A DNA stretch of 64,000 nt from a virus. How positions within the stretch are numbered: position 1 is the stretch's first letter; every line of letters starts with the position of its first letter. The notes under the pieces are model-generated. The model saw nothing but the letters and a program-made list of their open reading frames with translations, was not told the origin of the DNA and did not search any database. Both the position numbers and the translations under genes were made by a program. The stretch is from positions 1 to 64,000 of the IMG/VR virus record IMGVR_UViG_3300028920_001037; one strand, 5' to 3'. Positions 27,577-55,191 of the stretch are shown here, piece after piece.

Positions 27577-27951
27577 TTAATACATCTCTGAAGCTGGTGT
27601 TCCGTAGTCTTCGTCTGTTCCGTAACCTGCTGAAGCTAATGTATCGGCATCTGCTTCTACATCGCTCATATCAACAGGCTCATCATATTCTTCCTCTGCG
27701 CTAGATTCAATATAGCTTTTAAGAGCTGAAAGAATATTATAGTCATCATCAAAGACTTGTGGGTTAGCTGATTTCATATCACTAACAAAATCTGCTATAA
27801 TACTTTTAACATCACCCATCATTTCTTCAAGAGTGTTTTTCTTTTCTGTTTCCTTAGAGAGGTCTACGACTTCTTCAGGACCATCTTTTAAATTGAGATT
27901 AAGGTTTTCTTCTTGCGATAAACCTTCTTTTAAATATTTTTCGAAACTCAT
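27577..27951 (-). CDS. Acidic protein with capsid-targeting-like N-terminus
   Basis: MSFEKYLKE. Confidence 0.65.
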   Translation of the reverse strand: MSFEKYLKEGLSQEENLNLNLKDGPEEVVDLSKETEKKNTLEEMMGDVKSIIADFVSDMKSANPQVFDDDYNILSALKSYIESSAEEEYDEPVDMSDVEADADTLASAGYGTDEDYGTPASEMY

Positions 27952-27952
27952 A

Positions 27953-28246
27953 TTAAATATCCTCTATTTCATATGCATTTAAATCCCAAATAAATTCTTT
28001 AATAGTTAAACCATGCTGTTCTAAAATTTTATTAATATCTTTTCTCATATTTATCATAAAAGCTTTTTGTTCTGGAGTTGGTTTATAATTTTTCATCGTT
28101 TGTCCAGTAACGCCGCGACCCATAAAAGCTTTTGTAAACCTATGTTCTTTTGGTCTAATTCGCATGGTAATATCATATTCTGCCACTTCTTCATTTGGAT
28201 TTATATCTGAGTATATATTTTCTTTTAAATATTTTTCGAAACTCAT
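27953..28246 (-). CDS. Protein with capsid-targeting-like N-terminus
   Basis: MSFEKYLKE. Confidence 0.65.
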   Translation of the reverse strand: MSFEKYLKENIYSDINPNEEVAEYDITMRIRPKEHRFTKAFMGRGVTGQTMKNYKPTPEQKAFMINMRKDINKILEQHGLTIKEFIWDLNAYEIEDI

Positions 28247-28247
28247 A

Positions 28248-28892
28248 TTAATAGCCCCCTTCTTTATCTAGCTTATCACTTTTCTGATAAGTCATATGGT
28301 CTGGATTAGTTTTAATATCTTCTGGTTTTTCATAGACATCAAAAGTTTCTTCGTTGTCATTAAGTTTTGTATAGGCCATTTCCATTGAGGTCTGGTCTTC
28401 TTTGAGTTCTTCTCTTGTGAAGATAAATCTGTTATAAATCTTTTCTTCGCCTTCATCATTTGAAACATCATAGTTCTTATCTCTATCTTCAGTTATAGCA
28501 GATTCGTCTATAAAATTATAATCTTTAATTTTCTTCGCTAACGCTTTAGCAATATTATTATAGGCAGGATATTTTTCGGATGCTCTCCAGTAGAACTTAG
28601 TTGGGTTTTTAAGTTCAACCCATTCTGAAAGAGCCTCAACAAAAGCATTTTCAACTTCTTTTGTTTCTTCTATGGTTTCGGTATTGCCTAACCATTTCTT
28701 ACGGAGTTGAAGTTTCCATGCACCGTCATCATATTCTGTACCTTCTGATTCAGCTATACATGAATATGTTGTTCCACCAACTTTAAAATAAATTTCGAAC
28801 CCACCTTTCGCTCTATCAAACCAGACATTACATCTGCCCATTCTCATGTTTGGTGATTCTAATTCTTCTGTAAGATACTTTTGAAAACTCAT
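28248..28892 (-). CDS. Protein with capsid-targeting-like N-terminus
   Basis: MSFQKYLTE; AAGGAG RBS. Confidence 0.65.
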   Translation of the reverse strand: MSFQKYLTEELESPNMRMGRCNVWFDRAKGGFEIYFKVGGTTYSCIAESEGTEYDDGAWKLQLRKKWLGNTETIEETKEVENAFVEALSEWVELKNPTKFYWRASEKYPAYNNIAKALAKKIKDYNFIDESAITEDRDKNYDVSNDEGEEKIYNRFIFTREELKEDQTSMEMAYTKLNDNEETFDVYEKPEDIKTNPDHMTYQKSDKLDKEGGY

Positions 28893-28935
28893 GTTGACTC
28901 CTTTAAAAATTAAAAGCTTATAACACTCTTTATTA

Positions 28936-28943
28936 TATTTATA
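28936..28943 (-). promoter_or_regulatory. Late promoter TATAAATA
   Basis: Exact intergenic octamer. Confidence 0.7.
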
Positions 28944-28946
28944 ATA

Positions 28947-30131
28947 TTATATTTCAAGAAAATCAGCTAATCCCTTTTTTTGTCCGGTTTTTACAGGTTC
29001 TTTTTCAGGTTCATCCTCATGGAAACCAAACATATCTTTAACGTAATCAGCTGGTAACCTATTTTTATCCTTAGATTTAAGGCTTTTAAACACATCTGGA
29101 TCTTTATCAATTGCCATTCTCATTATATCAATATCAGGATCTTCTATATAAGTAACTGCATATGGATCAGCCTTAACAGCGGCTTGTTGAACTTCTCTTG
29201 GTGGATCTTTAATATTTTTAATTCCTAATGGCGATTTAGTAACTGCTCTAAGCATATCTTCTATTTCGACTTTTGCTCTTTCACTTTCAGCAGTTTTACC
29301 ATAAACATCTTTAACATAAGCTGCCCAAGGACCTCTTAAATCTTGACTAATTCTAGTAAGACCTTTATATGGATTATCAAAATAAAATGACATTGGATTA
29401 CTAATATATCTTTTATCATCTAGTATTTTTTTAATCCTAAATGAATCCAACTCTTTATTCTTTGTAAATATTGAACCTGTATTATGTTCTAAATCAAATA
29501 CATAATCCAAATATTCAAACTGTTTACGCTGGTTTACATTAGGAACATCTAATGCTTGAATAGCTGATTCCGCTATATTCTTCCACGCACTTCCACCATA
29601 TTGATCGCTTATCCAACCACTTCCATCTGCAAATGCAAACTTAGCAAACTCAAATAAATCAAAAGGTCTATATCCATATTTCTTCATAAATTCTTTTGTC
29701 ATTTCATAAACATCTTTATAACCTTGTGCATAACTTACTTTATGTGGTTCCAATATAAGTTTATCCGATGATGTTCTCTTGTCTGGGTCTGCAAAATATT
29801 TAACATAATCCAAGAAAAATTTCTTTACTCTATCTCCACCTTTTAACCATTTTGGTGGCTCACCTTCTAATGCTGATGGTTTTCTAAAATGTAAATAGTG
29901 CGCGATTTCAGCTGATATTGCTAATTTTAAATTATATAAAAGTTCTTTATACCAATAATCTATAATGGTTTTTTGTGCATCCTTTAAAGCATAAGCTAGA
30001 TCTTCATCTCTTAAAGAATCTGGATTTATAACAGACAATGCATAAAAATCATACATGGCAGAATAAAAGTCTTCTGGTTTATAATGCCAGTTAGAAAAAA
30101 GTTCTTTAAGATAATAATCTTTAAATCTCAT
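28947..30131 (-). CDS. Protein with capsid-targeting-like N-terminus and C-terminal DUF4116-like repeats
   Basis: MRFKDYYLKE; three AV...P..I..I.DP repeats. Confidence 0.65.
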   Translation of the reverse strand: MRFKDYYLKELFSNWHYKPEDFYSAMYDFYALSVINPDSLRDEDLAYALKDAQKTIIDYWYKELLYNLKLAISAEIAHYLHFRKPSALEGEPPKWLKGGDRVKKFFLDYVKYFADPDKRTSSDKLILEPHKVSYAQGYKDVYEMTKEFMKKYGYRPFDLFEFAKFAFADGSGWISDQYGGSAWKNIAESAIQALDVPNVNQRKQFEYLDYVFDLEHNTGSIFTKNKELDSFRIKKILDDKRYISNPMSFYFDNPYKGLTRISQDLRGPWAAYVKDVYGKTAESERAKVEIEDMLRAVTKSPLGIKNIKDPPREVQQAAVKADPYAVTYIEDPDIDIMRMAIDKDPDVFKSLKSKDKNRLPADYVKDMFGFHEDEPEKEPVKTGQKKGLADFLEI

Positions 30132-30388
30132 TTTTTATTCTCCATATATTTTTTATCTGTTCTTCTAACTATTTTATAACCTTTTGTATATAAATAATTT
30201 ATTATATTGCAAGATTCTTTAAATGCTGGATCTTGATTGTTAACTGCATATAACAAATCAACTTCGGCATTTTTAATAGCATCTATCATTATATTTCTAG
30301 TTTCTTCTATAATTTGAAGATCTATATCATCACTTTTACTTTCAAGTATTTCATTTTCTTTCAGTTGTAAAAAATCTTTAAATCTCAT
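30128..30388 (-). CDS. Protein with capsid-targeting-like N-terminus
   Basis: MRFKDFLQLKE. Confidence 0.6.
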   Translation of the reverse strand: MRFKDFLQLKENEILESKSDDIDLQIIEETRNIMIDAIKNAEVDLLYAVNNQDPAFKESCNIINYLYTKGYKIVRRTDKKYMENKK

Positions 30389-30648
30389 TTTTTATTCTCC
30401 ATTCTCTTTTGACCTACTTTACCAAAATAACTTATTCCGTTTGCTAATGAATAAAGAACTATAACACTTTGTGGAATAGTTTGTATTGCTCCTTTACTTA
30501 AACACAATCCCGTCCAAACTCCCCAGAAACAAAGATTAGAAAGTACAACACAAGTTAAGAAACCAAACCTTACAGATGACCAATGTTCTCCACCATTCTT
30601 AAACATTGATGATAGTCTATGCAATAATGTATCGATAAATTGTTTCAT
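30385..30648 (-). CDS. Two-TM membrane protein, possibly holin-like (probable start 30648)
   Basis: SSVRFG followed by two hydrophobic segments and a basic C-terminus. Confidence 0.5.
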   Translation of the reverse strand: MKQFIDTLLHRLSSMFKNGGEHWSSVRFGFLTCVVLSNLCFWGVWTGLCLSKGAIQTIPQSVIVLYSLANGISYFGKVGQKRMENKK

Positions 30649-30659
30649 ATTTATATCCT

Positions 30660-30836
30660 TTACATAAATAAGTCTTTTATTTTTGACCAATTTGTTTTTG
30701 GTTGTTGTGGTGTTGATTTAGCTTTTTTAACTTTTGTTTGTAAAGTTTTTATAGTATCAACAGAATCGGATTTGATTTCCATTGAGTACGAAATACTTAA
30801 AAAAATTAAAGTAATTATAAGTATTATTTTTTTCAT
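30660..30836 (-). CDS. Small secreted protein (58 aa)
   Basis: Manual translation MKKIILIITLIFLSISYSMEIKSD...; signal-peptide-like; ATGA overlap with the upstream gene. Confidence 0.55.
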   Translation of the reverse strand: MKKIILIITLIFLSISYSMEIKSDSVDTIKTLQTKVKKAKSTPQQPKTNWSKIKDLFM

Positions 30837-31132
30837 TTTGTAAATTTTCCTTTTAATTTTTTAGCTTCTTCTAGTGCTATTTTATATTCTTCATTTGTTG
30901 GAAACCTTTCGGTTAATCTTTTAATAGCATTTACAATCATCTTTTTATTTTCTTCATCTAGAAAACCACGACCAATCATAGTATAATAAAAACCATTTAA
31001 GATTTCATCAGAAGATAAATTACTATTATTAACTTCATCTAATTCTTTATCGGTTGGATCTCTGTATATAGTTTCATTAAATATACTAGGTTTGCTATTA
31101 ATGTTTTCTTTTAAATATTGTTTAAAGCTCAT
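30833..31132 (-). CDS. Protein with capsid-targeting-like N-terminus (start MSFKQ)
   Basis: MSFKQYLKE; ATGA overlap with the cca stop. Confidence 0.6.
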   Translation of the reverse strand: MSFKQYLKENINSKPSIFNETIYRDPTDKELDEVNNSNLSSDEILNGFYYTMIGRGFLDEENKKMIVNAIKRLTERFPTNEEYKIALEEAKKLKGKFTK

Positions 31133-32580
31133 GATTCTTTCCAATCCTTAACTAGTTGTTCTATAGTTTCCATATCGTCTAATGGTATTTCATTATCCAT
31201 AACATAATCAGTTACGTCTTTAATAATGTCGCCCATTTTCGGTCCTGGTTTTATATCCGGGCGGATCCGCATAATCAATTTACCATTGATAACTTTTCTA
31301 ACAGCATCAACTGCGTCTTTACCTTTTGACCATTCTTTAATCTTATTTATCTTTTCTTGTATTTCATTCCACTCTTTCTGGTCATATAAACTTCCTCTTG
31401 CTTTAGTATCTGCCAATGCAACTTGTTGTAACACATCAAAATATGGAGATTTCAATAATTGTGCAATGGTCGAGTTACTCATCTTTGGAATATTAAAATA
31501 GTTCATATGATTACTAGCCGCAAAAATTAAAGCGTCTTTCATCTTATTTTGTAGTTTAAGTCTGTCTGCAATTTTTTCCAATATGCGTTTTGACTCTCCT
31601 TCATGACCATGATATGTATGAGTTCCTTTTTCTGTATCAAACTTATATGTTTCTGGTTTACCAACATCATGTAAAAGTATAGCCATATTAACTGTTGGGT
31701 CATTTCCTTTGTAAGTTCTAAGAGCTGCAATTGTGTGTTGAATGACGTTGCCTTCTGGATGGTGAGCAGGTGTATGCTGAAACCCTTCCATAACATCAAT
31801 CTCTGGAAGAATGTATTGTAATAGTCCAACATCTTTCATCATTAAGATGGCATCAGCAAATTTAGTTCCCGGTTCTTTAGCCATCTTTAAAACTTCTTTC
31901 ATTATTCTTTCGGCGGCTTGACCCTTAATTTTATCAGACTGTGATTGAATTGCTTTAAAAGTTTCTGGCTCTACATTAAATCCCATACGAGAGGCAAAAC
32001 GAATTGCTCTAAGCATTCTAATATAATCTTCTGTAAATCTTTCTTCTGGATTACCAACAGTTCTAAGAACTTTATCTTTAATATCTTTCTTACCATCAAA
32101 ATAGTCTAGAATATTTCCATCTCTATCTATTGCCATTGCATTAATTGTAAAATCTCTACGAGCAGCGTCATCTTTAAAGTCTGGAACTATTGTTACTTTA
32201 TCCGGATGTCTGCCATCAGTATACGTTCCATCTGAACGAAAATTAGAAATTTCAAAATTATAACCTTTATATTCTACAACCACAATACCAAATTCTTTAT
32301 TTCTTCCGATGTCATGTGATGGAAATAATCTATCGACAGTTTCCATAGGAACATTGGTTGCTATATCAACATCATCGAAATCTTTTCCTAATATAATATC
32401 TCTGACTGCACCACCAACGATATAGTTCTTTGAATCTGGTTTAGCTTTCTTTAGTTTATCTAATATTTCAACACCTGCTTTAAGTGGTGGAGTTTTTTCA
32501 ACGTATTCTTCCCAGTCACCAAAGCGATCTTCGTCTTCAATATAGCCTTCTTTAAAAATATAAAATTCTTTAAATCTCAT
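31129..32580 (-). CDS. cca: Class II CCA-adding tRNA nucleotidyltransferase with HD domain
   Basis: VGGAVRD, DVDIAT, RRDFTINA, ED..RMLRA.RF, LLHDVGK; extra N-terminal MRFKEFYIFKE. Confidence 0.9.
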   Translation of the reverse strand: MRFKEFYIFKEGYIEDEDRFGDWEEYVEKTPPLKAGVEILDKLKKAKPDSKNYIVGGAVRDIILGKDFDDVDIATNVPMETVDRLFPSHDIGRNKEFGIVVVEYKGYNFEISNFRSDGTYTDGRHPDKVTIVPDFKDDAARRDFTINAMAIDRDGNILDYFDGKKDIKDKVLRTVGNPEERFTEDYIRMLRAIRFASRMGFNVEPETFKAIQSQSDKIKGQAAERIMKEVLKMAKEPGTKFADAILMMKDVGLLQYILPEIDVMEGFQHTPAHHPEGNVIQHTIAALRTYKGNDPTVNMAILLHDVGKPETYKFDTEKGTHTYHGHEGESKRILEKIADRLKLQNKMKDALIFAASNHMNYFNIPKMSNSTIAQLLKSPYFDVLQQVALADTKARGSLYDQKEWNEIQEKINKIKEWSKGKDAVDAVRKVINGKLIMRIRPDIKPGPKMGDIIKDVTDYVMDNEIPLDDMETIEQLVKDWKES

Positions 32581-32589
32581 TTTTATTCC

Positions 32590-33216
32590 TTAAAAAATAA
32601 ATTTATTTACTAGTGTATATCTAATATTAAAGATACCAAACAATATTTGAATCTCTTTAAGACATTCATTCATTCCACCACCACATAAAAGACAGTTATT
32701 AAAATCTCTTTTTAGTTCAGCTATATTTATATCTGGATTCCATATTGTTATACCTTCATCTTCTATAGCTTCAAATCCATTATTATAATCTTCTTCTGAT
32801 AATATATTCTTCCATTGATCTAAAGGTACATCTCTACTATCAGTAATTTTATTATTATACATATATCTTAAAGTTTGTTTAACTCCATTTTCACTAATAC
32901 CATGATCTAAAAAGTCACGAAAGAATGAATAACCTTTATCATAAAAATCAACATTATTCCAATCCCAATCAGTATAAAGACTTTCATTGTATTCTGCAAG
33001 CCAGCTTCTAATAACATCAGGTGAATCCTCACTTGCTATTGTTTCGGGGCCATTATAGAAATATAATATATTTTTCTTGATACTAGTTAAAAAATCTCCA
33101 AATTCTGTTAGGTCAAACTTAATATTATCTTTATATAAAGGTTGCACATCAACAACGACTAGGCTACGAAATGTGCTTCCCATACGTTCATTTAGATAAT
33201 ATTCTTTGAATCTCAT
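32590..33216 (-). CDS. Isochorismatase-like fold protein with capsid-targeting-like N-terminus
   Basis: MRFKEYYLNE; VVVDVQP...K...LCGG...ECL. Confidence 0.55.
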   Translation of the reverse strand: MRFKEYYLNERMGSTFRSLVVVDVQPLYKDNIKFDLTEFGDFLTSIKKNILYFYNGPETIASEDSPDVIRSWLAEYNESLYTDWDWNNVDFYDKGYSFFRDFLDHGISENGVKQTLRYMYNNKITDSRDVPLDQWKNILSEEDYNNGFEAIEDEGITIWNPDINIAELKRDFNNCLLCGGGMNECLKEIQILFGIFNIRYTLVNKFIF

Positions 33217-33959
33217 TATTTACCGCGTCTCTTTTCTAACCAGTTAGAATACGACATATAGTCTTTTAAAAGTGTTATAACATCATTATATGTTTTAAGT
33301 TCGTTTAAATCTTTTATCTTTGCATATTTGCTTCTTTTGGTAAGGAAAAGTATTTGTTTAGGTAAAACCATCCAGTATCTTTGTATATCAAATATTATTT
33401 CTTCTTCACCACCAACAGGCGGAAGTTCATTATTATATTCCTTATATGTTTGATGAATCTTATCAAGAACATCGTTATATTCTTCTTCATTCTCAATATC
33501 TTTTATAGGTGTAGTTAAATCTCCCATATTTAATTCTTTTGGGCTTTTATCCGATAAGATTGCAATATCATTTGTAATTGGTGATACAAAAGACTTAAAT
33601 GGTTTAATTGGAACCATAATTCCTGGATTTCCAAAAACAGAAAAGGTATGTAATTTGTAAGTTGCAAATGCTGGTTTTCTAATTCCTAACTTTCTTCTCA
33701 CCATATCGGCTGCTAATTGATTTCGACCAACTAAAAAACTACCACGAAATACAACATCACCATCGACTTCTTTCCTATCATTAATAACTTCTACAGCAGG
33801 CCACGGCCCTCTATTTACAGAAAAGGATCTCCACACAATATCCTTATTTGATAAATCAAGACTATTAATATCATTAATTATCAATGGCAAACTATCGGTC
33901 AGCTTGCCTCGTTCTGGATAGACTATATCTTCTGATAAATAATAATCTTTAAATCTCAT
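33216..33959 (-). CDS. Protein with capsid-targeting-like N-terminus
   Basis: MRFKDYYLSE; first gene after a late promoter. Confidence 0.65.
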   Translation of the reverse strand: MRFKDYYLSEDIVYPERGKLTDSLPLIINDINSLDLSNKDIVWRSFSVNRGPWPAVEVINDRKEVDGDVVFRGSFLVGRNQLAADMVRRKLGIRKPAFATYKLHTFSVFGNPGIMVPIKPFKSFVSPITNDIAILSDKSPKELNMGDLTTPIKDIENEEEYNDVLDKIHQTYKEYNNELPPVGGEEEIIFDIQRYWMVLPKQILFLTKRSKYAKIKDLNELKTYNDVITLLKDYMSYSNWLEKRRGK

Positions 33960-33977
33960 ATACTTATACCTCTTATA

Positions 33978-33985
33978 TATTTATA
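33978..33985 (-). promoter_or_regulatory. Late promoter TATAAATA
   Basis: Exact octamer upstream of a GAGG RBS. Confidence 0.7.
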
Positions 33986-33989
33986 TTTA

Positions 33990-36900
33990 TTAGTTTAACA
34001 TCATAACACGATTATTTAAGGATACTACAGCACCTGAACTAGAACTTGATTCAGAAGACTCTGAACTGCTAGATTCAGATGAACTACTAGACTCTGAACT
34101 TGAGCTTTCAGATGATGAGCTAGATTCACTAGAACTAGATGATGAACTTGACTCGGATGATGATGAGCTAGATTCTGATGATGAACTTTCAGATGAACTG
34201 CTTGATTCGGAAGAAGATTCTTGTGCCAGTTCTAAATAAAGTTTACTTATATAAAATTCATGAAACTGACTTCCAGTAGATTCATGATCTATTCTTAATA
34301 TAATATCTCCAGCACTTAAATAATCAGAAGAATCTAAAAGACTAAATGCTGAAGTGTATGGAGAACTAGCATCTGGAAAATCTGTAGTTGCACTTGTTAC
34401 ATCATCCCATTGTGATAGAGTATAATTCCATTGTTTCAATTTTACATTATGTGATGGGCTTCCATCATAATATCCAGTAAAGTTTAAAATAATATCAGTA
34501 GATGGTACATCATCATATTCACCATATTTAAAATCATATACAAAACCTGGAGTACCACTAGTTTCACCCAATACTAAATTATTACTGCTACTTTCTTTAT
34601 ATACGTCTGATAATTGACCAGCCAGTATACTACCAACTACAACATTTAAGGATGAAGGATTCCACCAATTATCAGCCTCACTACTACTAGATTCAGAACT
34701 TGAGCTCGACTCACTAGAACTTGACTCTGAACTTGAACTTGATTCAGATGATGAGCTTTCTGACGAACTTGATGATTCTGAACTTGAACTTTCCGATGAT
34801 GAGCTAGATTCACTAGAGCTACTAGACTCCGAACTTGAACTTTCAGATGATGAGCTAGATTCACTAGAGCTAGATTCTGATGAACTGCTTGACTCACTTG
34901 AACTTGATTCAGATGAAGAACTTGACTCACTAGAACTCGACTCAGACGAACTTGACGATTCAGAACTACTTGATTCCGAACTAGAACTCTCTGATGAACT
35001 TGACGACTCAGAACTAGAAGATTCAGACGATGAACTAGACTCTGATGAACTAGAACTTGACTCAGATGAAGAACTTGACTCAGATGAACTAGATGATTCA
35101 GAACTAGAACTTTCCGATGAAGAACTTGATTCACTTGAACTGCTACTAGATTCGGAACTTGAACTTGACTCAGATGAGCTACTCGACTCAGATGAGCTAC
35201 TACTTGATTCACTTGAACTAGATGACTCAGATGAGCTACTACTTGATTCACTTGAACTAGATGACTCAGATGAGCTACTTGATTCAGATGAACTAGAAGA
35301 AGAACTTTCAGAACTAGAACTTGAAGATTCACTACTACTACTTGACTCAGACGAACTACTACTTGATGACTCTGAACTTGAGCTAGACTCTGAACTTGAG
35401 CTACTAGATTCCGATGAAGAACTAGATTCCGATGAAGAACTAGAACTAGATTCGCTTGAGCTACTTGACTCCGATGATGAACTAGACTCAGAGGAGCTAG
35501 AACTAGATTCACTTGAGCTAGATGATTCTGATGATGAGCTTGACTCAGAGGAACTAGAACTTGATTCTGAACTACTACTTGACTCACTTGAACTGCTAGA
35601 TTCAGATGAGGAACTAGATGATTCAGAACTAGAACTTGACTCACTAGAACTACTTGATTCTGAACTTGAGCTACTAGATTCACTAGAACTACTTGATTCA
35701 CTTGAACTAGATGACGAACTTTCAGAACTAGAACTAGACTCACTTGAGCTACTGCTTGATTCTGAACTGCTACTTGATTCAGAGGAACTAGAACTTGATG
35801 ATTCTGAACTACTACTTGACTCAGAACTAGAACTAGAACTTTCTGATGAACTACTTGACTCAGATGATGAACTTGACTCAGAGCTAGAACTCGATGATTC
35901 TGAACTGCTACTCGACTCACTTGAACTTGATGATGAACTTTCTGAACTTGAGCTTGATTCACTTGAGCTACTGCTTGACTCGGAAGAACTTGACGATTCA
36001 GAACTACTGCTTGACTCAGAACTGGAACTAGAACTTTCCGAACTGCTAGAAGATTCTGATGAACTTGATGATGAACTTTCTGAACTTGAGCTTGATTCAC
36101 TTGAGCTACTGCTTGACTCAGAAGAACTTGACGATTCAGAAGAGCTAGAAGATTCACTACTTGAACTTGATTCAGAGGAACTACTGCTAGATTCCGATGA
36201 AGAACTAGATTCCGATGAAGAACTAGAACTAGATTCTGATGAACTACTAGATTCACTTGAACTGCTACTAGATTCTGATGAACTGCTTGATTCGGATGAA
36301 GAACTAGATTCTGATGAACTTGAGCTTGACTCTGATGATGAACTTGACTCACTAGAGCTAGATGATGAACTCTCCGATGATGAGCTTGACTCAGATGAAC
36401 TAGAACTCGATTCACTAGAACTGCTTGATTCTGAACTTGAGCTAGATGACTCAGATGATGAACTTGATTCTGATGAAGAACTTGATTCACTTGAACTAGA
36501 ACTTGACTCCGATGATGAACTAGACTCACTCGAGCTACTACTTGATGATTCAGAACTACTACTAGACTCACTTGAGCTACTACTTGATTCCGATGAACTT
36601 GATGACTCAGATGAAGAACTAGAACTCGACTCACTTGAGCTAGATGATTCTGATGAACTAGATGATGAACTTTCCGAACTAGAGCTAGATTCTGAACTTG
36701 AACTAGAAGATTCCGAACTACTACTAGACTCACTTGAGCTACTGCTTGATGATTCACTGGAGCTACTTGATTCGCTAGAACTAGAACTTGATTCAGAACT
36801 ACTGCTAGATTCTGAACTAGAACTTGACTCTGAACTTGAACTACTAGATTCAGATGATGAACTTGACTCAGAACTAGAACTACTACTTGATTCAGATGAA

Positions 36901-39074: not shown

Positions 39075-39127
39075 AGAATCTATCCTATATAAGAATAGTT
39101 TTAATTAAATAATAATTTACTTGACTG

Positions 39128-40186: not shown

Positions 40187-40195
40187 AATGCAAAA

Positions 40196-40501: not shown

Positions 40502-40555
40502 TGAAACTCCTCCAGAATTTGTTATAAATTAAATACTTATATAGTACCTCTATTA

Positions 40556-42704: not shown

Positions 42705-42720
42705 TTATTAATCTCTCCTT

Positions 42721-47499: not shown

Positions 47500-47522
47500 A
47501 TAAACTCCTATCTATTTCAAGA

Positions 47523-47558
47523 TATTTATAATATAATATATTATTCGTAAAAAGTCAA
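47523..47558 (-). promoter_or_regulatory. Overlapping early (TTGACT-N17-TATATT) and late (TATAAATA) promoters of glycosylation cluster 1
   Basis: -35 at 47553-47558, -10 at 47530-47535, TATAAATA at 47523-47530. Confidence 0.75.
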
Positions 47559-47585
47559 CTTATGTTTGAAACTTAAATAATATAT

Positions 47586-48197
47586 TTACCTATTGTCAAA
47601 TCTTTCATCCTGTTCGGTTTCAACCGGAATTGCATTTATCAAATTATAAATAATATCTTTTTGTTCATCTGTAAACTTCCATCTTTTATTTACATTTTTA
47701 TCAGCCCAGTCTTTAACTGAAGAGCCTTTTTCTTCTGACATTGCTAACCAATCAGCCATCATCTCAGCAACATATATATCAGGCATTTTAGTTGCATCGA
47801 CTAATTGATCTGGTACGGCATCTCTATCTTTTGTATTAATGTTTGCTGTATCTCCAGCCCAACATTCCGGATGATGTTTATTAACCTTAACATGATGTAA
47901 AGTTGCCTCATTACATTTATCCTTAACTCCATCTGGCATTGTATAGTCTTTACCCAAGTCTTTACAATGATAATCCCATGAGATGAAGATATAAGGAATT
48001 TTCTCTACATCATCTTCAAGTTTACTTTTATCATGTTCTTCAGTTTGTTTTGATAAACCTTCATATCGTTTATCATAGTCTTCAATTTTCTTTGCATATT
48101 TTTGAACTCGACCAATGTGTTTTTTAGTTCTTTGTTCAAACCAGTCTTTCATTTCATCAGTATAATTCATACTTTCATAAAAACTTTTAAATGTCAT
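47586..48197 (-). CDS. HD-like (DUF5662-type) protein
   Basis: H...V, HDKSK, HH...NKHHPE, MP.....EM.ADW; N-terminus MTFKSFYE. Confidence 0.75.
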   Translation of the reverse strand: MTFKSFYESMNYTDEMKDWFEQRTKKHIGRVQKYAKKIEDYDKRYEGLSKQTEEHDKSKLEDDVEKIPYIFISWDYHCKDLGKDYTMPDGVKDKCNEATLHHVKVNKHHPECWAGDTANINTKDRDAVPDQLVDATKMPDIYVAEMMADWLAMSEEKGSSVKDWADKNVNKRWKFTDEQKDIIYNLINAIPVETEQDERFDNR

Positions 48198-48207
48198 ACT
48201 AACTCCT

Positions 48208-48831
48208 TTATTTTTCTCCTACTTTAGATGATCCTCCACCCATTTTCCATGCATGTTTTGTCCAACCTGTTTGAGGGCTTCCACTCTTTTTTTCTTCACC
48301 TTCTTCTGGTGAGGTAGCTGCCATTATTTTTTCGTCATCTGAATCTGTTTCGGATTTTCCTATATTAGTTTTATCAAGTAAAAGTTTCATAACTAAGTAT
48401 ACAACATCACCATCAGTTTCTGTATTTTTACTTAAAATTTTATTAAGTTTATAATATCCACCTATACTCGGTTCTGTTTCTAAAAATATTTCAAATTTAG
48501 CAACTTCTGGTTTAATAAAACTTTCAATTGCTTCTTTAACATCATCAACATTTGAGTTAACTTTTTCTGCTAAATTTGAAAGATTAATTTTTTGTATAAG
48601 TTTAATAGAATTTCCTTGTTTACCATCAAACATATAACCATCTATTTCTGGTTTTTGGAATTCTTCATCTTCTTTACCCCATAAATTTAATGCATGAGAA
48701 TCGTCTACTTTAATTAATGTAAAGTCTTTTTGCCCCTCTTGTTGTGGTGCTAAATATGGTTTAAGTTGATCTTTAACATCTTCAAAAAAAGTATTAAGTT
48801 TATTATACAAAAATTGTTTATGTTCCCTCAT
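48208..48831 (-). CDS. Hypothetical acidic protein
   Basis: GGAGG RBS. Confidence 0.6.
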   Translation of the reverse strand: MREHKQFLYNKLNTFFEDVKDQLKPYLAPQQEGQKDFTLIKVDDSHALNLWGKEDEEFQKPEIDGYMFDGKQGNSIKLIQKINLSNLAEKVNSNVDDVKEAIESFIKPEVAKFEIFLETEPSIGGYYKLNKILSKNTETDGDVVYLVMKLLLDKTNIGKSETDSDDEKIMAATSPEEGEEKKSGSPQTGWTKHAWKMGGGSSKVGEK

Positions 48832-48988
48832 TATTTCCTCCCAAGTTTTCTAAAAATGATAATTGTTTATCTACATACCAGTTATATTCTAAATAATTAT
48901 TAAATTGTTTATCTCTAGCATTAACATCTTCATTAATACTTTTATCGTCATTCATTTTTTCATTTAAATATTTATCAAAGTTTTCCAT
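48818..48988 (-). CDS. Small protein (56 aa) with capsid-targeting-like N-terminus
   Basis: Manual translation MENFDKYLNEK...; fills the gap between two genes. Confidence 0.55.
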   Translation of the reverse strand: MENFDKYLNEKMNDDKSINEDVNARDKQFNNYLEYNWYVDKQLSFLENLGGNNEGT

Positions 48989-48989
48989 A

Positions 48990-49964
48990 TTAAACCGATA
49001 CCTTTTCTTTTTCTTTAGATGTTACAAATTGTTTTCTAGATTCTCTTATTTTATTTATAAAACCTCTCAAAATATCTTCTAGATTATCTTTTTTAATTTC
49101 ATATACTATTGATGTATTTGTTTCGGGATCTGTAAACTGTGCCATATTAATATAACTATAACCAGGAGGAATATCCCAGAAACCATCAAACTTTAATCCT
49201 GTTTTATCAGCTAAGTATTTAGCTATCTGAACAATACTTGTATCAATTTTTTCAATTCCATTTTCTTCTGTAAGCAATCTAATACTATTATTTTTACTAT
49301 AAAAAGATAACATTTTTTCAGTTATATATTTTTCATAATTATTTACAGACTCTTCCTTTTCTTCTTCATCTTGTAATTCAGGTTCAAGTTTATCTTTATA
49401 AGGATAAAGGTCTATTTTAAAGAAGTCTGTATCTTCAAATTTAATGAATTCAGCTTTTTGGTCTTTATCTTCAATCTCTATTTTTTTCCAATCACCTTCT
49501 TCGTCCATATATTCTTTAACTGCATCTATAGGAACATTGGCAACAAACACAATGCTAACTTCTTCATCTTCTTCCATATCAGCAGCTTTAGAAGGTTCTA
49601 ATGTTGCCATAACATATTTACCTTCTTCAAAGTCTTTGTATTTCTCTTTATCTTTAACACCATAGTAGAAATCAAAAAGTTCACCTTCAATAGCCTTTTC
49701 TGGTTCTGGTTGAGCAGCTGGTGCTCCCATACCAGGCATATTTTTTCTTTTCTTTGCCTTATCATATTTACTAGTTTTCTTTTTCTTTCTAGCCAAGTCG
49801 ATTGGTTTATATTTCATTTGTTCTTCAGGTGCCAAAGACTTAATCTTAACATAATGCATTTCACCTGATTTGGTTCTGTGCCAAACTCTTCTTTCGCGCC
49901 ATGCGATTGAAGGTGGTTTATAGTCTTTTGAATACTCGTTTAATAAATGATCTAATATACTCAT
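48990..49964 (-). CDS. Hypothetical protein with basic N-terminus and acidic core
   Basis: MSILDHLLNE; internal YEKYITE. Confidence 0.6.
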   Translation of the reverse strand: MSILDHLLNEYSKDYKPPSIAWRERRVWHRTKSGEMHYVKIKSLAPEEQMKYKPIDLARKKKKTSKYDKAKKRKNMPGMGAPAAQPEPEKAIEGELFDFYYGVKDKEKYKDFEEGKYVMATLEPSKAADMEEDEEVSIVFVANVPIDAVKEYMDEEGDWKKIEIEDKDQKAEFIKFEDTDFFKIDLYPYKDKLEPELQDEEEKEESVNNYEKYITEKMLSFYSKNNSIRLLTEENGIEKIDTSIVQIAKYLADKTGLKFDGFWDIPPGYSYINMAQFTDPETNTSIVYEIKKDNLEDILRGFINKIRESRKQFVTSKEKEKVSV

Positions 49965-49975
49965 TTGTTATCCTT

Positions 49976-51337
49976 TTATAATTCGAATTCGTTTATATCT
50001 GTAATATCAGCTTCTACTTGGAAAAATTTTAAAAAGTAACCCAATCCTTTCTTAATAATTTGAACTATGGCGTTGTAAATTCTTTTCATAAAATTAACAA
50101 CTACAGTACCATACTTTTTAATTTTATCCATAAAACCTTCATTAAGATCTTCTGTAATTAAATCACAATCTATTCCTAATGATTCGGCATATTCAAATAA
50201 TTTACAAACATTTATTTCAGTTGTTTCTTTCTTTACAGGCACTTCTTGAACATCAAGAATAGTTGAAGAACCGCTGTTACCACTAGTCTTCCAATTAACC
50301 AAAATCTTAACTTGATTAGCTAATTTTTTAATTTTACTACTAATAATTGCAAACTCAATTACTGATGCATCACTATTAAATTTTAAAAAGTAGTTTGCCT
50401 TTGGTGGTTGTTCAATGAATTTTAAATCTCCGGTAACGGCCTCTTTAATAAATTCTTGTTTAAATCGACTATTGTTTGCTACAATATTATTTAAAATTCT
50501 TTCAAACTCTTTGTGGTTTAATCCTATTTTTGTTTTAGCTTCTAAATCTTTTACATTTCTTCCTAATAAAGCTTCTTCACTAGATTCTGGTTTAACCCAT
50601 TTATCTACGGTTTTAATAAATTCATCACCAACATTTGCCTTATTTAAAGCATTATAGATGAGAGCTTGACCTTCACCATGTATTACCTGTGGTGATGCTA
50701 AACGAATTCGACCAGTTTTACTCATTAACTTTAATGACATTCTATATGCTTCACTAATTAAAACGTCAGTTTTTGGCGTTCTATCTGGTGATCTTTTTGA
50801 ATTTACCAATGATACATATTGTCTACTCAATTGATAATTTTTATTGGCTCCTATATTAATAGCTGGTTGATTAGTTTTAATTTGTTTATCAATATAATCA
50901 GCTATTTTTTTACCAACAGTATTATCCATTGATGTTGGTTCTTTAACTTTGAATTCCTTAATATGTTTTTTATTCCAAGCATTAGTTATAGCAGCTTCAT
51001 ATGTTGTACCTTTTTCTAAAGATCTTGATACGAATTCCTTTGTCTTAACTATATGTGCTAATCTATATTTTTCACCATCACTACCTATAAATAAAATATT
51101 TTTAATATTCTCATCTCTATCTTTTAACATTTTAATTGCTTTTGAATTTAAATTTACAGGGAAAGTAATTTCTTTAGTTTCACCTTTTTTTCTTATGGCA
51201 AATTTCGATTCATCTTTAATCTTTTTTAAAAATGTATCGACTCTACCAGGTCTATTAAATAAACTTACATAACTAAAAGTACCACGACCAGCATGTTTGT
51301 CTTCGGACTCAGTAAAATAATGTTCTCTAAATCTCAT
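49976..51337 (-). CDS. PD-(D/E)XK-like nuclease-fold protein with capsid-targeting-like N-terminus
   Basis: MRFREHYFTE; E...PKTD.......SLK; EA.TG..KF. Confidence 0.55.
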   Translation of the reverse strand: MRFREHYFTESEDKHAGRGTFSYVSLFNRPGRVDTFLKKIKDESKFAIRKKGETKEITFPVNLNSKAIKMLKDRDENIKNILFIGSDGEKYRLAHIVKTKEFVSRSLEKGTTYEAAITNAWNKKHIKEFKVKEPTSMDNTVGKKIADYIDKQIKTNQPAINIGANKNYQLSRQYVSLVNSKRSPDRTPKTDVLISEAYRMSLKLMSKTGRIRLASPQVIHGEGQALIYNALNKANVGDEFIKTVDKWVKPESSEEALLGRNVKDLEAKTKIGLNHKEFERILNNIVANNSRFKQEFIKEAVTGDLKFIEQPPKANYFLKFNSDASVIEFAIISSKIKKLANQVKILVNWKTSGNSGSSTILDVQEVPVKKETTEINVCKLFEYAESLGIDCDLITEDLNEGFMDKIKKYGTVVVNFMKRIYNAIVQIIKKGLGYFLKFFQVEADITDINEFEL

Positions 51338-51346
51338 TGTTACTCC

Positions 51347-52435
51347 TTATAAATCTGTAAAATCAATAGGTTCAGCTTCTATTACTGGAATTATTCCCCA
51401 AAAATTACAAAAATCGTCAAAACCTTTTTTAAGCATGTTTATTAATTTATTAAAAATATTCTTAAAAAAGTCCCATATTTTTTGTAATACTCCTTGTTCT
51501 TCTTCATTTAACAAAGATAATTCTTTATCTAGATATTTATATTCCTGTACAAGAAAATCATTCCAACATGTTGCTTCCTTAGTTGGGTCTTTTGCTTCAT
51601 ATCTATGTGATGTTCTATAATATAAATTGGATGGGTCATGTTTATCCTTATCCGTTTTATATGAAATTCTAAACTTAGATTTCTGCATTACCTTATCTAT
51701 AAAATTATCATCTGTTAAAATATCATAATATCCTATTTTCTTAGCATCATTTGTAAAAGAAAGCATTTTATAGGCCGCGGCTTTTGGTTCTGTTGATGAA
51801 AATTTAATTTGTCCTGACAAAGCTTCCTTAACAATATCCCTATTAAATTCCTCATTTTGAAATATATCTTTTAACATAACCTGTATTTTATCATCAAGTT
51901 CTTTTGTTTTATCTGCTATTTCTTTTTTACGACTTGCCGGTGCCTTAAATCTATCCATAAATCCTTGTTCCATAGTTCTATTTAATTCTACAACTTGGTT
52001 CTGTAATCCTTGATATAGTTCCTTTTTGCTGTTCATAACTGCAAAAAACAATGCCATAGATTCTGTTTTGGCTCCACTTGAGAGTGTTGACTTCTCACCC
52101 TTTGCACCAGCTTTAAGTGATAGATTAATCTGTTTAGGACTGTTAACTACTATGTCGGATTTTGATTTTGATTTACCAGCAGGATATTCAGTTCCTGTTT
52201 CTGGATCAACAAATGCAAATGCTTTACTTACTTGAAATGGTACCGGACCTATAGCTTCGGATTCTACATCTCCAGTTATATTTTCTCTTTTAAAAAAGTC
52301 TTCACAAACTTTTTTAGTCGCTTCTGCAAGTTCTGGAAATGATTCAACACGACCAGTATTTAAATATTCATTGACAGTAACTTCAAATTGATCACCAATA
52401 GTTGCTTCTGTTAAATAAAATTCCTTAAATCTCAT
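51347..52435 (-). CDS. PD-(D/E)XK-like nuclease-fold protein (paralogue of 49976-51337)
   Basis: MRFKEFYLTE; FE...KSD........LSLK; EALSG..KF. Confidence 0.55.
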   Translation of the reverse strand: MRFKEFYLTEATIGDQFEVTVNEYLNTGRVESFPELAEATKKVCEDFFKRENITGDVESEAIGPVPFQVSKAFAFVDPETGTEYPAGKSKSKSDIVVNSPKQINLSLKAGAKGEKSTLSSGAKTESMALFFAVMNSKKELYQGLQNQVVELNRTMEQGFMDRFKAPASRKKEIADKTKELDDKIQVMLKDIFQNEEFNRDIVKEALSGQIKFSSTEPKAAAYKMLSFTNDAKKIGYYDILTDDNFIDKVMQKSKFRISYKTDKDKHDPSNLYYRTSHRYEAKDPTKEATCWNDFLVQEYKYLDKELSLLNEEEQGVLQKIWDFFKNIFNKLINMLKKGFDDFCNFWGIIPVIEAEPIDFTDL

Positions 52436-52439
52436 CGGA

Positions 52440-53912
52440 TTAACCTTTCTTTGCCATTGCCCATCTATGTGCTAAAGCTTTACTTGTTTTTATCTTCTCA
52501 CCCTTCTCAGCGGCTTCTTTTGCTTTCTCAAGTGTTGCTTTTAGTTTTGACCACTTATCAATACCTGATTGCTTTCCCTTACCAGCTGTAACAGCAGCCA
52601 CAGCCGCTTCCATATTCTTTTCAAACTTTCCTGTAAGAGAATCAATCGATCTTGCTATACCAAGTTTCGATGCTTCGGCTTCTCCACCAGCTTGATATTC
52701 TTTTCCATAAGTTTCTAAATCCTTAATGAAGTTTGCAACATCCAATTTTCCAGAAACTAACTTTACAAATAAGTCTATTCTATCTTTTCTGATAGGAACA
52801 AGATGCATTAATTCTTGACCCAATTCCTTATCTTGATAAACAATCTTATATAAAGATTCTGCCTTTTCAGGAACAGTTTGGTCTGAATTGACTATATTCA
52901 CAAACTCAGGGTTATTTACAACAGAACTAATAATCTTCTCGACTCTATTATCATACTTTGTTCCTGCACCATGAATAGGAAGAAAGATATGTTTCTTTTC
53001 TTTCTTCTTACAATAGTTACACTTTCTACAGTCACCTATACAATGACGAGCAATTGTAACTGGTGAACCATAATACTCTTGACCTTTAATAGTTTTGTCT
53101 TTAATCTTCTTCATTATGTCAATGAATTCATCATACTCGACTGCTATAAATGCATTATCTAACATATACTGTGAACCATTAACACATACATTAGGTCCTA
53201 AATCTCCAACATCTAAATCGGTTCTATGTGTATATGTGTATATTTGTAAAGGTGAACCTATGTTATTTAGTTCTGCTCCGACTTGTGCAAGTTTTTTAAC
53301 ATCATCTGCTGTTCCTATTTTTGCTTTCATCTCATCAGGAACTTTTGCTAGAAGTGCAGGGTCAGTTGGAATATTTCTAAATTCACCTGCTTCATTGACT
53401 CTTACATACTTAATCTTCTTTAAAGCCTTTGCAATCTCATCTAATCCTTTTGCAATACCAGCTGGAGTCAAACATGCCCATTGTTTTTCATGTCTTATAT
53501 TCTTTGCTAATGGTGATCCTGGTTTATCCCCCCATCTCTTTTCTGGAGCCAATGCATAACAATTACCATCAGCGGCTAGTTTACACAAACCAATCTTGGC
53601 AGACATACAATCCGTTGCTGTTGACATATTCATTAAAATAGTATCGCCACCTATTTTAATATTACCTTTACCAACTTCAAAGTGTCTTTCTTCTCCTGTG
53701 TCCGGGTCTTTATAAGTTATTGACGGAGATTTATACTTATCATCTTTTTCTTCTGTAAGAGTTATTTCCTTTAATGCCCCTTCTTTAATAAGAGTTGGAA
53801 AATATTTGTCAGGAATTCCAATGTGCAACTTTCCACTTTCATCAAAATAACAAAGTTCAAAATGAATAGGAATGTTAAGTTCAGGCTGATTATAATGTTC
53901 TGTAAATCTCAT
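52440..53912 (-). CDS. GP88-like (radical-SAM-related Fe-S) protein
   Basis: C.......C.......CYA, R.NEAGEF, YTYT, C...C..C..C. Confidence 0.65.
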   Translation of the reverse strand: MRFTEHYNQPELNIPIHFELCYFDESGKLHIGIPDKYFPTLIKEGALKEITLTEEKDDKYKSPSITYKDPDTGEERHFEVGKGNIKIGGDTILMNMSTATDCMSAKIGLCKLAADGNCYALAPEKRWGDKPGSPLAKNIRHEKQWACLTPAGIAKGLDEIAKALKKIKYVRVNEAGEFRNIPTDPALLAKVPDEMKAKIGTADDVKKLAQVGAELNNIGSPLQIYTYTHRTDLDVGDLGPNVCVNGSQYMLDNAFIAVEYDEFIDIMKKIKDKTIKGQEYYGSPVTIARHCIGDCRKCNYCKKKEKKHIFLPIHGAGTKYDNRVEKIISSVVNNPEFVNIVNSDQTVPEKAESLYKIVYQDKELGQELMHLVPIRKDRIDLFVKLVSGKLDVANFIKDLETYGKEYQAGGEAEASKLGIARSIDSLTGKFEKNMEAAVAAVTAGKGKQSGIDKWSKLKATLEKAKEAAEKGEKIKTSKALAHRWAMAKKG

Positions 53913-54403
53913 ATAAGTTCGAATCCTTCCTCTTTTATTTTTGATTTGGTTTCTTCAAACTTCTTTTGCATTTTATCTATAATATGGTCAGGTACATCTG
54001 ATCTATCTTTACCTGCTTCAATATCTTTTCTAATTCTTCTTTTCGATTCTTCTGGGTCAATTTCAAAAATTTTTGCCTTAAGTTTAATATCTTTTGGCAT
54101 TTGTTTAATTAGACTTCTTCTTTTTTCTGTATCAACATTGGTTGCATCATATATTACAGAATCTCCACCTTCCAAGAATCTCTTGGTTGCTTCTTCTGCC
54201 ATTTGAAAGACTTGAGCATTCATTGACTGGTCTGAAATATCGTCTGCCATTTCGCGTCTTATTTCATCAGGTGAAACAATTTTATATTTATTACCTTTAT
54301 TGAATTCCTTTATCCAAGTAGACTTACCGGATCCAGGAATTCCAATCGGAAGAACTAGTTCCGGTTTATCATCTTCAGTATAAAATTCTTTAAATCTATT
54401 CAT
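53909..54403 (-). CDS. Polynucleotide kinase-like P-loop kinase (AAA_33)
   Basis: GIPGSGKST, SPDEIR, DATN...RR, R...R...VP; N-terminus MNRFKEFYTE. Confidence 0.85.
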   Translation of the reverse strand: MNRFKEFYTEDDKPELVLPIGIPGSGKSTWIKEFNKGNKYKIVSPDEIRREMADDISDQSMNAQVFQMAEEATKRFLEGGDSVIYDATNVDTEKRRSLIKQMPKDIKLKAKIFEIDPEESKRRIRKDIEAGKDRSDVPDHIIDKMQKKFEETKSKIKEEGFELI

Positions 54404-54408
54404 AAATA

Positions 54409-54416
54409 TATTTATA
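54409..54416 (-). promoter_or_regulatory. Late promoter TATAAATA (leaderless-type spacing to the ATG)
   Basis: Octamer 5 nt upstream of the start codon at 54403. Confidence 0.65.
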
Positions 54417-54422
54417 ATTTAA

Positions 54423-54689
54423 TTAATGTGATAGATATAAGTCTATAGTTTTCTTATCAAAACCAATATCTATTAAATATTTCTCTTGTGCTTCCGATAA
54501 TCTTTTAACTGCCACAAACATATTTTCATTATTATTATTTAAATGTGTAACTTTTACCCATCCTTTTTGTTCTAACTCTTGTTCTGTAAATCCAATTTTT
54601 TCTGAAAACTTAACATGTTCACCATAACCACAAGGATAAAAATTGCCATCTCTATCTATCCACCCTGTTGTTGGTGTTGTTTCTTTCAT
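54423..54689 (-). CDS. Hypothetical phage protein
   Basis: GWI..DG.F..C....H...GWVK motif. Confidence 0.65.
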   Translation of the reverse strand: MKETTPTTGWIDRDGNFYPCGYGEHVKFSEKIGFTEQELEQKGWVKVTHLNNNNENMFVAVKRLSEAQEKYLIDIGFDKKTIDLYLSH

Positions 54690-55191
54690 ATTTGTCTAGC
54701 TCCTTAATTGTATCATTAGTTGATTTGTGTAGTAATCCAATACCTCCAGCTTTTTCCCACCTGTCTATATTCCCTTTCATATCATCAACTAATATACTTT
54801 TATTATCAGCATATTTTTCTTTATTTCTGTCTATTATATATTCAACATCATTTCCTAACTCTCTTTTAATCCAATCTATTTTACCTTTCTTTACAATATC
54901 AATATTTTGAGTGCCTGGAGATGATAGTATTATTGGATTAAATTGTTTCAAAAAATCCCACAGTTCTTTTCCATCTTTAGTCCAGGGAAGATTTGCCCAC
55001 CAATCTGAACCTGCATCATGAATTAATTTCCACGCTTCAACATCTTTACCTTCAGCTTCCCATTCATCCATAGTTTTACCTGGACTTAATTTATCAAACC
55101 CATCAACCCAACTTACAATAACACTATCCATGTCAACATATAACTTATAGTTTTTTAAATCTTCTGTAAAATAAAATAGCTTAAAACGCAT
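54652..55191 (-). CDS. HAD-family 5'(3')-deoxyribonucleotidase-like protein
   Basis: VDMDSV, W..LPW, ILSS, K..W, K......LVDD...N...W...GG; N-terminus MRFKLFYFTE. Confidence 0.85.
   Translation of the reverse strand: MRFKLFYFTEDLKNYKLYVDMDSVIVSWVDGFDKLSPGKTMDEWEAEGKDVEAWKLIHDAGSDWWANLPWTKDGKELWDFLKQFNPIILSSPGTQNIDIVKKGKIDWIKRELGNDVEYIIDRNKEKYADNKSILVDDMKGNIDRWEKAGGIGLLHKSTNDTIKELDKYERNNTNNRVDR

Follow-up and report, generated by a model that had tools for sequence, protein, structure and literature searches.

The DNA analyzed here comes from IMG/VR virus record IMGVR_UViG_3300028920_001037 (termed G000), a linear viral record of 75,062 bp whose first 64 kb (positions 1 to 64,000) constitute the window. 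Between positions 27577 and 55191, and again near the end of the record, minus-strand genes encode proteins that start with a common short peptide, termed the tag. By the CheckV estimate, G000 is ~29% complete and the full genome would measure roughly 250 kb; the GC content of the record is ~30%, and nearly all of its genes lie on the minus strand. Judged by its predicted genes, G000 belongs to a large lytic phage. It carries a nicotinamide adenine dinucleotide (NAD) salvage set together with a GMP reductase/IMPDH-type enzyme, a CobS/CobT-like pair of AAA and VWA proteins, RlaP, a patatin, GIY-YIG homing endonucleases, two glycosyltransferase/radical-SAM clusters, a collagen-like protein, and a repetitive protein of 1694 amino acids (aa).

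The tag covers 8 to 12 residues from Met1 on 20 open reading frames (ORFs) of G000, 17 of which lie in 27577-55191 and three past the window (contig 71861-72199, 72201-72803, and 73680-74939); all 20 are on the minus strand (Table 1). Its general form is M-[RS]-F-x-x-[YFH]-[YL]...[KTN]-E, with the consensus M-[RS]-F-[KE]-[ED]-[FYH]-Y-[LF]-[KTN]-E. A strict pattern (^M.{0,2}[RSTI]F..[YFH][YLF].{0,3}E) matched 16 of the 112 ORFs of the whole record, compared with 0.018 expected from composition, and none of the 460 internal Met positions. To these 16 we added the tag that begins at the alternative ATG of 30833-31132 and three cases of looser fit (48818, 48990, and 71861), giving 20 tags in all. 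Most tagged ORFs have a Shine-Dalgarno-like sequence 5 to 10 nt before the start. A first-pass annotation of the window, made from the letters alone, had quoted 16 such N-termini on otherwise unrelated proteins. All 16 are present at minus-strand ORF starts, so that the tags exist as described and the figure of "about 16" was a slight undercount. The proteins are unrelated as well: once the first 14 residues were cut, we found a single weakly similar pair among the tagged bodies (49976/51347, 24% identity).

We then aligned the 20 tags on the Glu that had been used to define them (P1, Glu in 20/20). Leu (12 tags) or Phe (5 tags) occupies P3 in 17/20, an aromatic residue (Tyr or Phe) stands at P4 in 15/20, and P2 is mostly polar, with Lys, Thr, Asn, or Ser in 18/20. 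Two sub-dialects could be distinguished, MSF-x-x-Y-L-[KT]-E on small acidic proteins and MRF-[KT]-[ED]-[FYH]-Y-...-E on larger ones. The DNA 5' of the tagged start codons varies and synonymous codons differ among the copies (AGA/CGT, TTA/CTT/CTA), showing that the conserved unit is the peptide and not a nucleotide cassette. An untagged ORF of 207 aa located inside the second run of tagged genes (window 48208-48831) starts with MREHKQFLYNKLNTFFED, which may be a degenerate or longer tag (F-F-E at residues 15 to 17).

Table 1. Tagged genes and T4-type late promoters of G000 (the last two rows lie past the window; functions are predictions)
Position	Strand	Feature	Length (aa)	N-terminus	Remarks
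27577..27951	-	tagged protein, acidic	124	MSFEKYLKE	
27953..28246	-	tagged protein	97	MSFEKYLKE	
28248..28892	-	tagged protein	214	MSFQKYLTE	
28936..28943	-	internal late promoter TATAAATA			51 nt upstream of 28248..28892
28947..30131	-	tagged protein	394	MRFKDYYLKE	weak matches to PHROGs of unknown function
30128..30388	-	tagged protein	86	MRFKDFLQLKE	
30833..31132	-	tagged protein	99 from ATG	MSFKQYLKE	TTG four codons upstream gives 103 aa
31129..32580	-	tagged CCA-adding tRNA nucleotidyltransferase with HD domain	483	MRFKEFYIFKE	
32590..33216	-	tagged protein	208	MRFKEYYLNE	tagged orthologues in G006 and G019
33216..33959	-	tagged protein	247	MRFKDYYLSE	heads first tag cluster
33978..33985	-	T4-type late promoter TATAAATA			heads cluster 1; 26 nt upstream of 33216..33959
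47586..48197	-	tagged DUF5662 protein	203	MTFKSFYE	
48818..48988	-	tagged protein, looser form	56	MENFDKYLNE	
48990..49964	-	loosely tagged protein	324	MSILDHLLNE	G019 orthologue starts MDFLEHYILTE
49976..51337	-	tagged protein, basic	453	MRFREHYFTE	virus-only family without a name
51347..52435	-	tagged protein	362	MRFKEFYLTE	weak paralogue of 49976..51337
52440..53912	-	tagged protein	490	MRFTEHYNQPE	GP88-like (language-model lead only); tagged G019 orthologue
53909..54403	-	tagged P-loop kinase (AAA_33, Zeta-toxin/PNK-like)	164	MNRFKEFYTE	tagged G019 orthologue
54409..54416	-	internal late promoter TATAAATA			13 nt upstream of kinase gene 53909..54403
54652..55191	-	tagged protein	179	MRFKLFYFTE	heads second tag cluster; tagged G019 orthologue
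55223..55230	-	T4-type late promoter TATAAATA			heads cluster 2; 39 nt upstream of 54652..55191
contig 72201-72803	-	tagged cytidylyltransferase-like nucleotidyltransferase			
contig 73680-74939	-	tagged RNA-ligase-like protein	419		

Evaluation of the promoters revealed that the T4-type late motif TATAAATA occurs 21 times in minus orientation on G000, with 9 of the 21 copies in intergenic DNA (3.2% of the contig), compared with 1 intergenic copy out of 12 in the opposite orientation. Nine genes have TATAAATA within 100 nt upstream of their start, and five of these are tagged. A second, early-type promoter, TTGAC(A/T)-N17-TATTATATT, precedes the NAD-salvage, ligase, and glycosylation units and stands directly before untagged genes only. 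The tagged genes form three clusters (33959 down to 27577, 55191 down to 47586, and 74939 down to 71861), which have only TATAAATA or CATAAATA at their heads, and on promoters read from sequence the tagged genes are confined to units headed by TATAAATA or NATAAATA. Tagged ORFs account for 20 of the 32 ORFs in late-only units and for none of the 74 elsewhere (Fisher p ~1e-13). The earlier claim that the tagged genes run behind late promoters, with none among the early or glycosylation genes, is borne out by these counts, and the motif was not found on early proteins. Taken together, the promoters support late expression of the tagged genes, which would match the timing of head assembly. In two places (window 47500-47585 and 5142-5568), an early-type TTGAC-N17-TATTATATT promoter and a late TATAAATA promoter stand in tandem and almost overlap, the unit that follows being the glycosylation operon in one case and a small basic ORF (5167-5310) in the other. 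The units behind these pairs are apparently transcribed both early and late.

We then compared the tagged proteins with their homologues. The Bacillus CCA-adding enzyme 1MIV aligns from residue 31 of the G000 enzyme, which has ~28 extra N-terminal residues, as anticipated if cellular homologues lack the extension, and with the CCA enzymes of cultured phages, which lack the tag, the alignment begins at about residue 53. The tag is found on 71 of the 120 nearest homologues from uncultured viruses (e.g., MRFKQFYLIE, MKFKRYLNE, and MRLQRYINE), many of the 120 being on contigs of 150 to 430 kb, and homologues that are only 45 to 65% identical still keep it. The conserved core of the kinase begins 6 residues after the tag Glu, and across the kinase, the nucleotidyltransferase, and the ligase-like protein this distance is 4 to 6 residues. 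These observations support a portable tag, added on to unrelated proteins and dispensable for their fold.

The genetic architecture of the third cluster bears on the same question. On other T4-like contigs, nucleotidyltransferase, ligase-like, and HD modules are fused into single proteins of 800 to 1200 residues, while on G000 the nucleotidyltransferase and ligase-like genes are separate, each tagged, with a GIY-YIG endonuclease gene between them. This arrangement looks like a fusion that was split by a mobile endonuclease and of which both halves are tagged, as expected if each polypeptide requires its own address. The intervening gene encodes a GIY-YIG/helix-turn-helix homing endonuclease (contig 72800-73690, within the block contig 72201-74939). 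In the ligase-like family, a [LIV]-x-Glu motif directly precedes the core GG-A-[YA]-GH-x-x-HP in 52 of 59 strict-core cases, fused forms included, and may be a second protease site that exposes an N-terminal Gly-Gly or else a part of the fold. A few members have Met at the position of this Glu. Homologues starting with M-GGAYGH were considered as natural leaderless forms and rejected as ambiguous, because some homologues have Met for Glu inside a longer ORF and the short forms may be gene-calling truncations.

The DNA of the tag cluster had no match among 50,697 phage records, and a locus search with a single tagged protein, that of 453 aa (49976..51337), gave no relatives. A DNA pattern for MRFK-x-[FY]-Y, in contrast, led to IMG/VR records with several such tags. 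The prohead protease of the gp21 type (PF03420, S77) was present in 4 of 5 tested records with MRFKEFY-type tags, the fifth being a 7-kb scrap. G006 (92 kb, 28% GC), one of these records, has about a dozen tags, and its portal, small core proteins, protease, scaffold, and capsid protein follow one another as in T4. In its region 10850-21111, a four-ORF block of ~4.7 kb, apparently of portal-region genes, occurs twice in tandem with identical N-termini, which is either a real duplication or an assembly artifact. The protease was also found in 11 of 18 long records with a phage-type CCA enzyme, including 6/6 of those at least 90% complete, and around the CCA genes of these long records a generic tag is carried by 321 of 2401 ORFs, compared with ~1% for the same class at internal Met positions of a comparable locus set. 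KVP40, a cultured 245-kb relative of T4, is at background (8 of 517 ORFs match), which indicates that the expansion is not general in large T4-like phages and is specific to certain uncultured lineages. Other lineages have tag dialects of their own, such as MIKLKDLLNE, MIRLKxLLxE, and MKHIQTFESFLNE, the last on 14 ORFs within 17 kb of one contig. In another T4-like relative, G001, at least five neighboring paralogues (119023-126541) start with MKNILAENM[LI]RFGTKNLSE.

The most informative relative is G019, a 264,037-bp record with terminal repeats that is 100% complete and has a GC content of 43%. It shares 36 orthologues with G000 (26 to 76% identity) in local synteny and keeps the glycosylation operon, the NAD genes, and the tag cluster in the G000 order. 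A few kilobases downstream of its glycosylation operon lies a head module composed of portal, a gp67-like protein, a gp21 homologue (PF03420, S77; G019 191372-192025), scaffold, and major capsid protein. G019 has ~24 tagged genes, including orthologues of 32590, 48990, 52440, 53909, and 54652; its tag clusters lie in late units headed by TATAAATA, and four small MSF- or MDF-tagged ORFs are located between the capsid and neck genes, inside the head module. By comparison with G019, the source phage of G000 almost certainly has the same T4-type head machinery. The orthologous tagged proteins, 35 to 57% identical, keep the aromatic and Glu positions, and the hydrophobic-x-Glu ending is retained while other positions drift, as expected for a protease site.

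These comparisons bear on two explanations that do without packaging. The common start could be a by-product of a recombination-promoting 5' cassette, comparable to the mobile regulatory cassettes of T4-type phages, or of an unstructured, AT-rich initiation booster, the peptide itself having no function. The tag codons are extremely AT-rich, and the internal-protein loci of T-even phages are recombination hot spots (Repoila et al. 1994, as cited in PMC9026906). However, neither the upstream DNA and ribosome-binding regions nor the choice of synonymous codons is conserved, G019 retains the peptide pattern at a GC content of 43%, and aromatic and Glu positions persist in its diverged orthologues, as does the tag in the distant CCA homologues; we therefore regard a functionless peptide as extremely unlikely. 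Alternatively, the tag could be a signal for stability or timing, such as an N-terminal degron for host Clp/Lon or a phage protease, that limits the lifetime of the proteins or delays their activation. A short, disordered peptide with basic and aromatic residues would suit this role, and a conserved Glu-type cleavage site could serve a zymogen-like activation. To our knowledge, however, the tag fits none of the N-terminal recognition classes of ClpX, which we counted against a degron; there is no evident reason why ~20 unrelated proteins should share one only in T4-like phages, and the constancy of the hydrophobic-x-Glu ending among orthologues is what a protease site would show. We consider this explanation very unlikely.

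The first-pass annotation had likened the tags to the capsid-targeting sequence (CTS) of T4, and we examined this comparison next to the T4 genome itself. The CTS principle and the portability of the CTS are textbook knowledge for T-even phages (PMC3012670, PMC9026906). The sequence cited for IPIII, MKTYQEFIAE, is also given in PMC8442874, and we located it in T4 ipII and ipIII. As a control, we searched the T4 ORFs, called with the same ORF caller, for hydrophobic residues at P7, P4, and P3 and Glu at P1 within the first 16 residues. Ten ORFs matched, including ipII and ipIII, gp24 (MAKINELLRE), and Alt (MELITELFDE), which are the known short (10-residue) propeptides cleaved by gp21 (PMC9026906, PMC5694885). 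The mutations of Mullaney and Black, as related in PMC9026906, assign residues 4 and 7 of the CTS to targeting and residues 8 and 10 to processing.

MSFEKYLKE has exactly the spacing of IPIII (aromatic P7, aromatic P4, Leu P3, and Glu P1), while the MRF-type tags have aromatic residues at P8, P5, and P4; for both types, the agreement with IPIII is one of pattern only. The tag endings fit the gp21 motif (L/I)-x-E quoted in the first-pass annotation, with the Phe at P3 having a counterpart in T4 Alt. Tags that end in Y-L-T-E or Y-F-T-E are also similar to F-L-T-E, the site behind which the T4 capsid protein is cleaved. Like the CTS of IPI, IPII, and IPIII and the propeptides of Alt and gp24, all removed by gp21, the tag is a portable N-terminal peptide of ~10 residues on unrelated late proteins, with hydrophobic or aromatic residues at P7/P8, P4, and P3 and Glu at P1, in a T4-type lineage that, through its relatives, has the S77 protease and the scaffold core. 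It differs in scale, with ~20 carriers on a third of a genome here and ~24 in G019 against 3 to 5 in T4, and in cargo, which in T4 consists of small basic DNA-associated proteins and here includes sizeable predicted enzymes (CCA-adding, RNA-ligase-like, and kinase). The residue dialect also differs, P3 being often Phe, and the tags of G000 are known from genes alone. The T4 search also drew attention to gp61.1 (AF158101.6 18966-19130), a hypothetical protein of 54 aa from the early primase region that starts with MKTFKEFIKE, which is closer to the CTS MKTYQEFIAE than the propeptides of Alt or gp24 are. Its score with a position-specific scoring matrix (PSSM) built from the 20 tags was 7.3, within the null range, and we know of no report of its packaging.

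We then analyzed the predicted cargo. The protein encoded by 31129-32580 has the PolyA_pol head domain and the RNA-binding domain of the CCA-adding enzymes of class II (PF01743, 6e-33; PF12627, 4.5e-12; HD, 4e-7) and matches 1MIV (1e-47). A large uncharacterized viral family (at least 415 matches) includes the ligase-like protein; its K-T-D-G-Q motif, invariant in 18 homologues, may correspond to motif I (KxDG) of the covalent nucleotidyltransferase superfamily. The AlphaFold model of the ligase-like protein has a mean predicted local distance difference test (pLDDT) score of 83, with residues 1 to 23 below 50, so that the tag is disordered in the model, and in a fold comparison (VIA) the top 35 rows were RNA or tRNA ligases at middling scores (Z 8.0 to 4.9, ~190 aligned residues), the best being Trl1 (Z 8.0), T4 Rnl1 (7.0), and Rnl2 (6.9). 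Neither Pfam nor PDB gave a sequence match to this family; since a profile search against PDB sequences was empty too, the pointer to RNA ligases comes from the fold comparison. For 12 of the tagged proteins, scans against PHROGs and Pfam were uninformative, and the idea that the 208-aa tagged protein (32590..33216) is a paralogue of the early nicotinamidase was dropped because BLASTP gave it no support. On sequence grounds, the label of enzyme appears justified for about 5 of the 20 tagged proteins, roughly 13 of the others being without assignable function, so that the earlier description of a portable tag on diverse enzymes holds for the portability and the add-on character and for only a minority of the cargo. 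The identifiable part looks like an RNA-end repair set, comprising the CCA-adding enzyme, the RNA-ligase-like protein, the P-loop kinase, and the nucleotidyltransferase.

Such a set could also suggest that the tag is an address other than the capsid, for instance a docking peptide for a cytoplasmic RNA-repair complex, a chaperone, or an assembly factory, with no packaging or injection. Several tagged proteins plausibly cooperate on RNA ends, and this idea draws further on the fact that the tags resemble the T4 CTS in pattern only and that packaging is our inference. We nevertheless judge it unlikely, as it leaves unexplained the invariant terminal Glu with L/F at P3, the predicted, exclusively late expression of the repair enzymes, the tagged small ORFs inside the head module of G019, and the fact that the carriers are all phages of the kind that has T4-type head genes. 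In addition, most tagged proteins are unrelated, small, and acidic and are not evident parts of one complex. Capsid targeting accounts better than any of these three alternatives for the hydrophobic-x-Glu ending, for the confinement of the tags to late units, and for their absence outside T4-type phages.

What we observed directly is the motif, its confinement to late units, its character as an addition to the proteins, and the presence of T4-type head genes in relatives that carry it. From these observations we propose with a probability of roughly 60% that the tag is a lineage-specific capsid-targeting peptide and prohead-protease propeptide, which loads ~20 to 30 late proteins, including the RNA-repair set, into the head. 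The tagged proteins would be made late, and the tag would bind them to the scaffolding core of the assembling prohead, where a gp21-type (S77) protease would cut after the Glu of the aromatic-[L/F]-x-E ending. The mature proteins would remain in the head until infection and reach the next host along with the DNA, ahead of all phage transcription, and the tRNA/RNA-repair kit could then pre-empt host anticodon nucleases and similar defenses.

Several results weigh against this proposal. No gene for capsid, portal, scaffold, or PF03420 (gp21) protease lies on the 75-kb, ~29% complete G000, so that the pairing of the motif with a gp21 homologue, which the first-pass annotation had wished to see, rests on G019 and other carriers. 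The protease does not predict tags, since some T4-like relatives that have it show none near the CCA gene. The PSSM from the 20 tags, run against T4 N-termini, did not place ipII or ipIII above background; since the matrix misses the internal proteins of T4, it does not demonstrate homology with the T4 CTS, and the likeness that had been claimed stands for hydrophobic spacing and terminal Glu, as a matter of pattern and context, and not at the residue level, where the similarity is not significant. The idea of an amphipathic helix was rejected, the hydrophobic moment of the tags being no higher than that of shuffled tags. Most tagged proteins are acidic, unlike the basic internal proteins of T4. 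T4 loads only a handful of small proteins via the CTS, and 20 to 30 cargo species of up to 54 kDa are far above its known load. We found no virion proteome and no cultured relative of the lineage.

Other known systems share parts of this picture. The giant phages phiKZ, 201phi2-1, and SPN3US hold many proteins inside the head, including a virion RNA polymerase, and trim them after Glu with a T4-related prohead protease (PMC5694885, PMC10052503). Their propeptides, however, are mostly 80 to 130 residues long, with an S/A/G-x-E site and no common short tag, whereas the tags of G000 are uniformly 8 to 12 residues long with L or F at P3. Iyer et al. 2017 predicted the packaging of polyvalent proteins of phages and conjugative elements (PMC5512222), in which several counter-defense or repair domains would likewise be delivered with the DNA; these domains are joined in one multidomain chain, while on G000 they are encoded by separate tagged genes. 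T4 Rnl1 and Pnk, which act against the PrrC anticodon nuclease, also pair a kinase with an RNA-ligase-type enzyme, but they are early, cytoplasmic, and unpackaged, in contrast to the late and tagged genes of G000, where a CCA-adding enzyme is additional and the ligase-like family is uncharacterized.

As a tentative extension, which we rate at somewhat below even odds, a clade of uncultured T4-like phages of 200 to 260 kb may carry 20 to 30 such proteins per virion, with an injected tRNA-repair kit that neutralizes abortive infection of the anticodon-nuclease type before the first transcript is made. Our literature searches, in which subscription journals were thinly covered, found no description of an expanded CTS repertoire or of packaged tRNA-repair enzymes; what would be new here is the scale, the cargo of enzymes, and the spread of the tags over uncultured giant T4-like phages. 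If the proposal is true, dozens of enzymes travel in the virions of a large clade of uncultured phages as a ready counter-defense arsenal, and RNA repair joins the functions that act ahead of phage transcription. A simple sequence rule would then predict the injected proteome of uncultured T4-like phages from their genomes, many proteins without a function would become candidate anti-defense effectors, and capsid engineering would gain new short loading peptides for protein-delivery vehicles.

Two further features of the window lie outside the tag clusters. The NAD-dependent DNA ligase is split (window 24534-26753), with the adenylation and OB domains at 25626-26753 and the helix-hairpin-helix and BRCT domains at 24534-25373. 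The halves are ~250 bp apart, and the gap holds a small zinc-finger-like ORF and a TATAAATA motif; in G019, the enzyme is encoded by a single gene (649 aa). At 6891-9709, six ORFs share a different N-terminus, MKIR-x-GFVSNSSSSSF, which is unrelated to the tag of Table 1. They belong to a unit that we read as early, and they adjoin a radical-SAM gene and a QueC-like gene.

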